A program made the translations under genes and the position numbers. The notes beneath the pieces were generated by a model. That model was not told where the DNA came from, ran no database searches, and worked only from the letters and a program-made list of their open reading frames with translations. From Saccostrea cucullata (Eukaryota), in the NCBI RefSeq assembly GCF_032062105.1, contig NW_026923980.1, positions 1 through 64,000 on the forward strand: 64,000 nt of DNA. The letters are read 5' to 3'. Of this stretch, positions 50,302 to 53,524 are shown one piece after another (within the stretch, counting starts at the first letter, position 1; each line of letters opens with the position of its first letter).

Positions 50302-52109
50302 CTGAAAGGAGGAAAAATATAAAATTTGTCATTTTTCCAAGGAAAAGAAAATGCATCAACACCAATAGCTTCGGGGTCTGGGAGAAAAGACACATATCTA
50401 TCAAGTTGATGATTTAATCTGGATGCAAACAAGTCAATTCCATTTTTTAAGTTAAATATTTGACATATACTGTCAAAAACAGTCTCGTTCAGTTTCCACT
50501 CTAAATCATCATTGATAGTGCGTGACAGTCTATCTGCCTCTACATTGTCAATGCCAGGAATATGAGAGGCGCTTATCCAAATGTTTCTTGCTATACACCA
50601 AAACCAGATATCCCTAGCTAACAAATTGAGTTCAGGAATTCTGCCCCCCATGTTGTTTATATAATGCATAACCACCATGTTGTCCAATCTAACTTGTATA
50701 TGTGTGTTTTCTGATGTGCTACAAAATGTCTTAATGCTCAGAAACACCGCTTTAAGTTCTAGATAGTTAATGTGATAAAGCTTTTCTTCATTTGACCAAT
50801 TTCCACCAGTCTTCTTGCCAGACTTGATTTCACAACCTCCCCATCCTTTTTGAGAACTATCTGTTTCTAAAATAATGTCTACAGTAGGAATTAGGATGGC
50901 CTTTGAACTTGTGCAAATATTATCACACCACCATGAAATGTCCTTAATAGATTCAACGGTCAAAAGAATCTTTTTGTCAAAATCTCCTCTATTTTGTCGT
51001 AACATATTATCTTTGAAAATTTCAAGATTTCTGTATCGTAGAGGTGCATGTTGGACAGCTGGTGAAGCTGCAACCATTTTCCCAATAAGCTGCGCCAACT
51101 CTCTTATCTGGATTTCATGTTTGATAATTAATTTAGACCCTAGATCCTTTATATCTTTTGCTTTGTCTTGCAATAAAGAAACGATCATTTTCTTAGAATT
51201 TATGAGAAATCCTAAAAATGCTATTTCTTGCACAGGCTCAACAACAGATTTGGTAGGATGAATAGTAAATCCTAAATTGTCAAGTAATGTTGATGTACTT
51301 CCTATATTTTGAGCACAATGTTCAAAACTATCACCTAACAGTAAAATGTCATCTATATATGGTACACTTTCAAATCCTTGTTTTCTCAATGTACTAAAAA
51401 CTGGTTTTAAAAGTTTTGTAAACACACGTGGGGCAGAAGATAATCCATTAGGTAAAGAAGTGTATTGAAAACACTGATTTCTCCATATGAATTTTAAGAA
51501 TTTTCTGTCTGCGGAATATATTGGTACAGAATAGTAGGCATCTTTTAAGTCTACCGAGGCCAACCAACAATCTTGCTTTACTAAACACAAAGCACTTTTT
51601 ATTGTTTCCATTTTGAAGTGGTGATATTCAACATCCTTGTTCAAATCTTGTAAATTTAGAATTAATCTAAAAGTTCCATCATGTTTTTTCCTAGTGAAAA
51701 TGTTTGAAATGAAGTCATTTTCCATTCTTTCTGTCTTTTCAATCACTTTTTTGTCAAGGAGTTTTTGAATTTCTGTATCAATGACAATCATTTCTTCTGG
51801 AGAGAACCTTATTTGATGAGGAACCCTATCTTGCAAAGGAGACTGTATTAAGTCAAGTTGATATCCTAGTACAGTTTTAAGAATTTTCCTATCTGATGTT
51901 AACTCCTTCCATTTGTCAAAATAAGAACAAATTTTTCCACCATAGAAATTATCAGGTGTATTATGAAATTTTTCAAGAATGTTGCATTTTTCCTCACTAT
52001 TAACTGTACTTACAGAATGGTCAAGATGAGCTATGTCTGTGATTGTTGGTTGAGTAGAATTGTCTACTTCTGTTGGGTTTGAGGTGGTCTCCTGCCCCTG
52101 CCTTTCCCT
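49929..52109 (-). CDS. DIRS Pol: reverse transcriptase, RNase H and DNA adenine methyltransferase-like domain
   Basis: VDLKDAY, LPNGLSSAPRVF, YIDD (RT); ETDSSQKGWG, ELKAV, ADRLSR (RNase H); DLFASRLN...YIFPPF (MT); frame stays open upstream of 51836 to the gag overlap with no ATG. Confidence 0.93.
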   Translation of the reverse strand, partial: RERQGQETTSNPTEVDNSTQPTITDIAHLDHSVSTVNSEEKCNILEKFHNTPDNFYGGKICSYFDKWKELTSDRKILKTVLGYQLDLIQSPLQDRVPHQIRFSPEEMIVIDTEIQKLLDKKVIEKTERMENDFISNIFTRKKHDGTFRLILNLQDLNKDVEYHHFKMETIKSALCLVKQDCWLASVDLKDAYYSVPIYSADRKFLKFIWRNQCFQYTSLPNGLSSAPRVFTKLLKPVFSTLRKQGFESVPYIDDILLLGDSFEHCAQNIGSTSTLLDNLGFTIHPTKSVVEPVQEIAFLGFLINSKKMIVSLLQDKAKDIKDLGSKLIIKHEIQIRELAQLIGKMVAASPAVQHAPLRYRNLEIFKDNMLRQNRGDFDKKILLTVESIKDISWWCDNICTSSKAILIPTVDIILETDSSQKGWGGCEIKSGKKTGGNWSNEEKLYHINYLELKAVFLSIKTFCSTSENTHIQVRLDNMVVMHYINNMGGRIPELNLLARDIWFWCIARNIWISASHIPGIDNVEADRLSRTINDDLEWKLNETVFDSICQIFNLKNGIDLFASRLNHQLDRYVSFLPDPEAIGVDAFSFPWKNDKFYIFPPFSMLGKVLQKIQQDKTNAVVIAPLWPTQAWFPALLKMIYLQPYLLNNKNILTMPTDPNRQHRIPKLKMGCFPLSGNFFRTEEYRKSLLWSFSTPGGNLLKDNTGVISNDGCNFVIQEKLIHLIQL

Positions 52110-53524
52110 AAAAAAGACCCATTGTTGTTTTGGTCATATTTGTAGGAATGGGAGTAGGTGCCATGTGTCTGGGGTTTTCCACTAAATCTGTAGCCAGATC
52201 CATAAGATTTCTGATGGCTTCCCTGATTTTTTCCTGCAGATGACCCTTGAAAACTGTATCCTTGGAGTTTTTTGCTCACTTTCTTCGAGGTATCAATTTT
52301 CTTGATCTTTTCATCTACGTTGTCGCCGAAGAGGAATTCTGTGACCTTGTTCGAATCATTGCACAGAGGTTTATAACTCTGTTTCAATTCTGGCCGGATT
52401 AAATATCTCCGTTTGTGAGATAAATCTGTAAAAGCTAATTGCAACAGTTTTACTGTATCTTGTGCTAGTTCAAGGCATTCCTTCATATCTGTGACTTCCG
52501 ATGTTTTTGATTTTCTTGCCGAAATCAATTTGTCTAAAAGTCTGCAAGCGGGGCTCAAAGCTTTTAACACAATTGTTTGGGATTTCTGGATTTTAAAATC
52601 TATTGACTGCGCCTTTTTCTTTAACGATGGCCATATTTCTTCATTGATACGGGGCACCGTCATGTTAGAGCAGTTTTCGGGTCTGTTGTGTTTTTCACAC
52701 AAATTTTTTGCCTTGTCTTCAGATGGTCTTACTTGGAAATTTGTGTTGATAACTTTTGCTAACTCAGCACTTAGAGCTGGTCCTGTTTTGTCATCTTTTA
52801 CCATAAACTCTTCTAATGATTCTAAGAAATCCTCTTCATCCTTGTCCTCGTCTTTATCCTTTTGCACTTTGGATATCAGGTCATCAAGAGTTTCTTCGTC
52901 ATCATTGTCCGACGTTAGTTCATCAGGCTCATTTGCGACCTGAAAACACAATTATCCATGTAAACTACATCATATTATCTTGCAGTGTTAGATCTCTCAA
53001 TAACAGAGTTTTTAACCTGATTTTATTTATAATATTGTTTTGAATATTGCCTTTCTATTTTAATTATGAAATTTTTTAGCTGCACAATTACTGCTGAAAT
53101 TATTGTTTTATGTCAGAATGGTAATACGTGCCTTGCGTTTCTTAGAAACAGGCTGTTCTGTGGTATTAACCAATGGTCTTTGCCGCATGAGATGATTAAG
53201 TATACTTTGGTTTTGAAAAAACAGTTTTTTCCATTGCACATGATCATCATCATCGTCTTCGTCCATGGGCGCAGCCATATTTGTTTGGCGCAGAGCATTC
53301 TGGGTCTTCTGGGCGTCCATCAACATCGATGGCGGGAAAGCAGGCGAAGCTCCGCCCACTACACAATCACTCTGAACAGTTTGAACTGTTTCTTCTCTTG
53401 CAGCTTCAGGCACAACAATGGACAAGAATTGATTTCTGTCATTATGGGATTGAACTCCCGCAACCAAACTGTCGAAGACAGCATCGCTATTCAAACGATT
53501 AGGTTCATTGGCCAAGTTCGCCAT
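52064..53524 (-). CDS. DIRS Gag-like ORF1, probably spliced (53524-53132 joined to 52939-52064, 422 aa)
   Basis: RPENCSNMTVPRINEEIW and FLFGD motifs; ACAATGG start; phase-0 AAG|gcacgt donor and tgttttcag|GTC acceptor. Confidence 0.75.

Follow-up and report, generated by a model that had tools for sequence, protein, structure and literature searches.

A probable -1 frameshift site serving Gag-Pol and a predicted Gag-recombinase in a DIRS1-like retrotransposon of Saccostrea cucullata

Short-overlap DIRS1-like retrotransposons such as LgDIRS1, AcaDIRS and DpuDIRS3 are collected in Table 3 of PMC3266345, and a full-length element of this kind lies on the minus strand of the 64,000-nucleotide stretch of Saccostrea cucullata DNA analyzed here (contig NW_026923980.1, positions 1 to 64,000; hereafter the window), which belongs to a host genome of 1.17 Gb. 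Judged by the accessible part of that source, the resemblance covers gag, the reverse transcriptase (RT)-ribonuclease H (RNase H) frame with its putative methyltransferase part, the recombinase, the inverted termini with ATT ends, the internal complementary regions (ICRs) of 38 and 84 nt placed on AAT, the YIDD and HSTR motifs and the size of 5.9 kb. The same part of the source presents three open reading frames (ORFs) without an account of their translation, whereas in the window element both enzymes apparently depend on one slip site, and two introns are present. As a retrotransposon the element is unexceptional within an established superfamily, and the use of -1 heptamers is itself a mechanism already known. 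Building on the observed frames, phases, conservation and two splice joints seen in contigs, we consider it probable that one programmed -1 frameshift at 52115-52109 gives both Gag-Pol, from RNA that retains pol, and Gag-recombinase, from RNA in which pol is spliced out.

The heptamer in question, U_UUU_UUA, is named the HIV shift site in the accessible part of PMC5009743. With the HIV-1 gag-pol frameshift the window element shares the identical heptamer and phase, a short gag/pol overlap and an AUG-less pol frame; unlike HIV-1 and the retroviral sites of the A_AAA_AAC type, it has neither a protease nor a DDE integrase, and its slip would also feed a spliced product. The HIV frameshift site has a 3′ stem-loop, whereas the window family is without a strong stem-loop 3′ of the site. 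Retroviral env and Drosophila copia gag are made from spliced subgenomic mRNAs, and here too the intron takes out most of pol and the unspliced RNA would be the genome; those spliced RNAs, however, are read without recoding, whereas the DIRS spliced frame, located behind the gag stop, would need a frameshift. In Ty3/gypsy-type long terminal repeat retroelements the integrase is part of Pol. These animal elements are likewise retrotransposons with a heptamer at the gag/pol overlap, but the integrating enzyme of the DIRS element is predicted to be an alternative spliced partner of the same shift. According to the accessible part of PMC5009743, a 2003 survey placed pol in the -1 frame in 28 of 51 animal retroelements. 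For Ngaro elements, which have the same order of elements, frameshifting has been proposed for the recombinase, an AUG-poor overlapping frame (Poulter and Butler 2015, quoted in the accessible part of PMC13003380); that proposal concerns the pol/recombinase overlap, whereas in the window element the slip would occur at gag/pol and the recombinase be reached by splicing. Neither a DIRS slippery site nor a pol-skipping splice was found in the accessible parts of PMC3266345, PMC6681497, PMC3783388, PMC7192593, PMC9210276, PMC8547959, PMC5009743 (whose first 300,000 characters do not mention DIRS), PMC13003380 and bioRxiv 2022.06.16.496473, although an earlier printed remark on DIRS gag/pol frameshifting is possible.

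The gag/pol junction of the window copy comprises the following features.

53132..53524, minus strand: gag exon 1, from the ATG at 53524, 131 codons (ORF translation)
52940..53131, minus strand: intron 1 in gag, 192 nt, GC-AG, phase 0, with an in-frame stop inside (joint 52938/53131 in contigs)
52064..52939, minus strand: gag exon 2, to the TAG, giving a spliced Gag of 422 aa (ORF translation)
52109..52115, minus strand: slippery heptamer U UUU UUA, the predicted -1 frameshift site, in phase in gag and kept in 9 of the 10 copies of the family
52075..52108, minus strand: weak downstream stem, -6.0 kcal/mol, z -1.3 to -1.6 for 60-80 nt
49929..52109, minus strand: pol in the -1 frame, with RT, RNase H and a putative methyltransferase-like domain, 726 codons, first ATG at 51791 (ORF translation, Pfam)

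The original prediction described an HIV-type site at this junction and took Pol to be made as a Gag-Pol fusion. Its reading of the gag minus strand as GGG TCT TTT TTA GGG AAA is correct: T TTT TTA at 52115-52109 stands in X XXY YYZ phase, inside the -1 overlap, and the gag stop (TAG) follows at 52066-52064. The -1 frame opens after a TGA (52136-52134), as had been noted, and extends over 52133-49929; the 727 codons counted from 52109 are 726 sense codons and the stop. The claim that roughly the first 100 pol codons lack an ATG also holds, since the first ATG, at 51791, is 106 codons past 52109 and falls after a conserved GGKI...W...D block. The prediction had overlooked the gag intron and the splice that takes out pol. 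The intron 1 joint occurs in contigs of three sequencing runs, X5, which is recorded as RNA, and X1 and X2, for which RNA is a guess; all genomic copies examined retain the intron. Because of the in-frame stop inside intron 1, the 422-aa Gag requires its removal, and since the intron is spliced in contigs yet kept in the genome, the unspliced RNA would be reverse-transcribed and the spliced RNA translated. Intron 1 may be missing from many other families, whose long gag frames include an early Met.

Conservation was assessed on 202 loci including the window. From 124, 148 and 147 host-genome matches, 120 loci were taken, with preference for those that reached the RT N-terminus and represented new families; to these were added the best 80 of 415 metagenome matches and one viral-collection locus. 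The RT N-terminal anchor is present in 194 of the 202, which fall into 96 families at 75% nucleotide identity; the member whose gag frame was open longest was taken for each. An intact -1 junction is found in 69 families (26 from the host genome, 43 others). Among the remainder, 7 have at least 300 open pol-frame codons upstream, 5 have the long upstream frame in the other phase, and 15 are too damaged or truncated.

The proposed persistence of the heptamer and the -1 overlap across DIRS relatives is borne out by this comparison. A canonical heptamer lies in phase in the overlap in 58 of the 69 families, whereas the two wrong phases have 19 and 7; 8.3 would be expected from the rate in the gag body, and 22.1±3.6 by synonymous-codon resampling (maximum 33 in 2000 runs). 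The exact sequences UUUUUUA (31 families) and AAAAAAC (20) together account for 51, where the synonymous-codon null gives 5.3±2.2 and at most 14. The two encode different Gag residues, F-L and K-N, and they alternate on a quick RT tree, from which one family with a short RT (L197) was omitted; strongly supported branches force at least 6 and at least 8 changes. Slipperiness, and not the Gag residues, is therefore conserved. On sequence comparison, the heptamer is thus under selection, with nucleotide conservation beyond protein needs. In addition, 44 of the 69 families have no pol-frame Met ahead of the conserved RT N-terminal block. The Gag-Pol fusion of the original prediction is supported by the -1 layout and the in-phase heptamer in most divergent families; the reading was incomplete in that a splice into the recombinase frame lies downstream of the slip site, and in that AAAAAAC occurs almost as often as the HIV-type heptamer. 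Relatives with gag and pol in one frame had been named as evidence against the frameshift site. Five related families, forming a well-supported clade, naturally have this arrangement, and it fits Gag-Pol as the product and is not taken as a refutation. As a separate observation, two single copies carry run-length changes at the slippery run, an extra T that puts gag in frame with pol (L194) and a long A run (L048); both may be mutations or assembly errors.

Downstream of the gag stop, the second splice involves three further features.

50302..52013, minus strand: intron 2, 1712 nt, GT-AG, removing RT and RNase H, with the donor in phase 0 of the pol frame and the acceptor in phase 0 of the recombinase frame (joint 50301/52014 in contigs of runs X1 and X3)
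52014..52109, minus strand: 32-codon pol-frame linker, common to the predicted Gag-Pol and Gag-recombinase (frame reading)
49126..50301, minus strand: tyrosine recombinase frame from the acceptor, 391 codons, HSTR motif, with an in-frame stop at 50004-50002 in the window copy (ORF translation, Pfam)

The ends of intron 2 are exact in the contigs, with GT-AG borders and a pyrimidine tract, and the donor lies 50 nt past the gag stop. One X1 contig is continuous from 52132 to 49122 and thus spans both the gag/pol junction and the intron 2 joint. The acceptor is the AG of a Ser codon within the FPPFS motif of pol, and the recombinase frame opens there; an acceptor at about 50071, beside the recombinase homology, had been the first guess and was replaced by 50302 from the contigs. 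Since both splice sites are in phase 0, the linker is joined in frame to the recombinase, and because the splice sits behind the gag stop, it is readable only by a slipped ribosome. No genomic copy that breaks at the intron 2 ends or lacks either intron was seen among the best candidates scored (40 of 62), and processed genomic copies are rejected as the source of the joints, although other individuals may differ.

The same signals recur across families. V-S or V-R codons just after the gag stop form a splice-donor consensus, which was recognised from the junctions before the RNA contigs were examined. Between the gag stop and the start of RT, motifs that resemble donors are distributed over pol phases 0, 1 and 2 as 50, 7 and 3, compared with 37, 38 and 57 in an RT-body control; a phase-0 motif is present in 48 of the 69 families, and in all 48 the first one lies 2-50 nt past the gag stop, where a crude uniform null gives 24.8. 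On the acceptor side, 52 of the 70 families that could be assessed have an AG after the PPF codons. Where this position encodes Ser, the codon is AGY in 51 of 55 families, a form used for 364 of the 1471 Ser codons in RT. From the acceptor AG the recombinase frame stays open for about 75 codons in 50 of the 52, and in 18 it begins exactly there (TAG). A clam gene model, P0038, known from its protein alone, contains Gag, an F-F-R-E pol-frame reading with the linker and the recombinase extension, and no RT; the other 41 long proteins are mostly RT-recombinase models and uninformative on the pol-skipping splice. Separately, three reads of run X22 exit the element at 50303, at the same acceptor, into foreign sequence, which suggests that another exon splices into the intron 2 acceptor.

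In the proposed mechanism, RNA that keeps intron 2 would, upon slippage at the heptamer, fuse Gag to Pol, whereas in RNA from which 52013-50302 has been removed the same slip would fuse Gag, via the 32-codon linker, to the tyrosine recombinase. The majority of ribosomes, which do not slip, would make the 422-aa Gag from either RNA. An intact copy would thus yield Gag of 422 aa, Gag-Pol of about 1134 aa and Gag-recombinase of about 831 aa. The fully unspliced RNA is expected to be the reverse-transcription template because genomic copies keep both introns.

Several observations weigh against this scheme. By class alone the heptamer is at chance, with 76 matches in the window versus 70.6±8.6 expected, and gag exon 2 has three further in-phase canonical heptamers outside the overlap; significance of a single 7-mer by itself is accordingly rejected, and the site stands above chance because of its position and its conservation across families. 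The families are related by descent, so their counts are not independent, and in the acceptor test the open-frame member was kept where a family had several. The strict heptamer is missing in 11 of the 69 families: 3 have UUUUUUG, 2 have GUUUUUU, 3 are members of a basal group whose junction differs, L144 has its AAAAAAC shortly before a pol-frame stop, and 2 show nothing. The acceptor AG is absent in 18 of the 70 families, including 3 assessable long-overlap families, and the splice model is therefore not universal. Of 8 runs, 2 have contigs with the intron 2 joint (X1 and X3, which come from separate studies), and both are taken to be RNA by guess; raw RNA runs X21-X23 contain no joint, but their 51 reads (26, 21 and 4), none of them across 51892-52229, are too few to be informative. 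In the spliced X3 contig and in an X19 contig, 12 nt are deleted between two GGG repeats (52106-52117), an allele that has lost the heptamer but keeps both frames; the X3 contig is missing another 14 nt at 50210 and appears to be a defective allele.

The downstream stem is also weak in the window family. The weak stem noted originally is real but modest, 60-100 nt 3′ of the site folding at -13.6 to -16.7 kcal/mol (z -0.3 to -1.6), and folds of 60-131 nt, in which pseudoknots were not searched, reveal no significant stimulator. Across families, stems 4-10 nt downstream average -7.8 kcal/mol, compared with -3.0 to -4.9 at six control offsets (n=51, p=0.004), and strong hairpins follow the site in some; stems of -10 kcal/mol or lower at this spacer occur in 41% versus 8-24% of controls, which is only a modest enrichment.

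Among the alternatives, the first to be considered retains the frameshift for Gag-Pol but has the recombinase start independently from its own AUG, either through reinitiation or from a short 3′ transcript, while the splice that skips pol would yield only a Gag mRNA. Some Met occurs downstream of the acceptor in the recombinase frame in 35 of 50 families, the window family included, and in the latter it lies near the start of the recombinase homology, just before a conserved recombinase helix; independent initiation is thus conceivable for this family, and the short distance from gag stop to donor (at most 50 nt in 48 of 48 families) would suit a stable Gag mRNA, fusion or not. However, 15 of the 50 families are without such a Met, the Met positions are scattered, and initiation of this kind does not need a phase-0 donor with a phase-0 acceptor, nor about 75 open codons after it (50 of 52 families). 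We regard it as unlikely, and the shared slip remains the preferred source of both fusions.

Less probable still is that Pol is made with no frameshift at all, by a splice from a gag donor or from an internal AUG, the heptamer merely encoding a conserved F-L-G. The element is indeed spliced, and F-L-G recurs at the Gag end in many families. Nevertheless, a synonymous null that retains F-L and K-N gives 5.3 families against the 51 observed, and a start at the first AUG would remove the conserved N-terminal block. Only 4 of 65 in-group families have an in-frame acceptor-like site ahead of the RT start, and no such joint is seen in the 8 runs; with neither a conserved in-frame acceptor nor a joint, the spliced route to pol is rejected. 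A shift introduced during transcription, with the polymerase slipping on the run of U or A, is very improbable: both common motifs do contain six identical bases, and the single-copy DNA runs of L048 and L194 have changed in length, but the runs are short, the codon ends are canonical YYZ, the ribosomal phase is kept, and slippage fails to explain the non-homopolymer motifs found at the same place, G GGU UUU in 3 families and U UUA AAC in 1. Finally, that the recombinase is reached through another -1 slip, located where pol and recombinase overlap, the route suggested for Ngaro by Poulter and Butler (quoted in the accessible part of PMC13003380), is hardly credible even though the recombinase frame is -1 relative to pol, since a splice into that frame is seen in contigs and in-phase heptamers, with none in the window, occur in 5 of 50 overlaps versus 11 and 9 in the wrong phases; a second slip site is rejected for want of enrichment.

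Different junctions are observed in other families. In the one-frame gag-pol clade (L148, L157, L166, L178, L196), two donors in phase 1 and phase 0 lie 5-8 nt apart, 63-362 nt upstream of the RT anchor; they could give free Gag or Gag-recombinase without frameshifting. Families 17, 19 and 22 (L061, L063, L068, L070, L089) have a gag that is apparently continuous with a long recombinase-overlap frame, with pol at +1 and no heptamer, a reading that is tentative because the copies are damaged. In the long-overlap families (L065, L075-L079, L073), the slip site (G UUU UUU or A AAA AAC) falls within an already open recombinase frame, which a -2 shift there could, speculatively, enter directly. The basal group (L082, L098, L120, L087, L094, L109, L100) has gag/pol at +1 or -1 and lacks the usual heptamers. 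Splicing may lead to pol there, since an in-frame acceptor-like site is found exactly where RT begins in L087, and L109 carries a comparable sequence.

The remaining structure of the element is as follows.

47972..53839, minus strand: full-length DIRS1-like retrotransposon, 5868 bp, ATT at start and end (layout matching PMC3266345)
53768..53839, minus strand: left terminus, the left inverted terminal repeat (ITR) (inverted-repeat match)
47972..48093, minus strand: right terminus, the right ITR with its extension (inverted-repeat match)
48911..49029, minus strand: ICR, a 38-nt left part and an 84-nt right part overlapping on the AAT circular junction at 48994-48992 (inverted-repeat match)

The termini are inverted, and their ATT trinucleotides are complementary to the AAT circular junction. 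An Ngaro or PAT-like element is rejected, as split direct repeats were not found and inverted termini with an ICR are present instead. In Pfam, the 726-codon frame matches RVT_1 (2.7e-20) and, weakly and below the cut-off, RT_RNaseH_2 (0.003); DLFAS and YIFPPF motifs are seen at its C-terminal end, with a sub-threshold PCIF1_WW match (3.5e-5). The last frame matches Phage_integrase (5.2e-15), a tyrosine recombinase in place of a DDE integrase, and the stop at 50004-50002 in the window copy is absent from all 6 sister copies readable there, which are open. The roughly 0.8 kb between the ICR and the right ITR (48094-48910) exceeds expectation and may hold an insertion or a long 3′ region. Contig joints 48859/53768 and 53805/48911 in runs X5 and X19 link terminus to ICR sequence; they probably stem from the repeats and are not established as circular intermediates. 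A-to-G differences clustered at 53779-53809, in the left ITR of X3 contigs and partly X2, may reflect either editing of RNA in the paired termini or an allele. Adjoining the element, a 1769-codon frame at 55315-60624 on the minus strand resembles what we take to be an NFX1-type zinc-finger helicase (ZNFX1-like).

With less confidence than for the window copy, we favor the view that most animal short-overlap DIRS1 elements combine one shared -1 gate with an alternative-splicing switch that selects RT or recombinase as the partner of Gag. With the donor no more than 50 nt past the gag stop, the spliced RNA would evade nonsense-mediated decay; in clades where the slip site was lost, the fusions would have been rebuilt through in-frame gag-pol with tandem donors or a continuous gag-recombinase frame. 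The literature examined leaves open how the start-less DIRS pol and recombinase frames are translated; the heptamer, donor and acceptor given here are exact, testable sites, and across the families natural UUUUUUA and AAAAAAC sites are available by the dozen, some with an obvious stimulator and some lacking one. A frameshift product selected by downstream alternative splicing would be an unusual pairing of two known mechanisms. If this is true, annotated DIRS recombinases are without their true N-terminus, and they would be packaged as Gag fusions.

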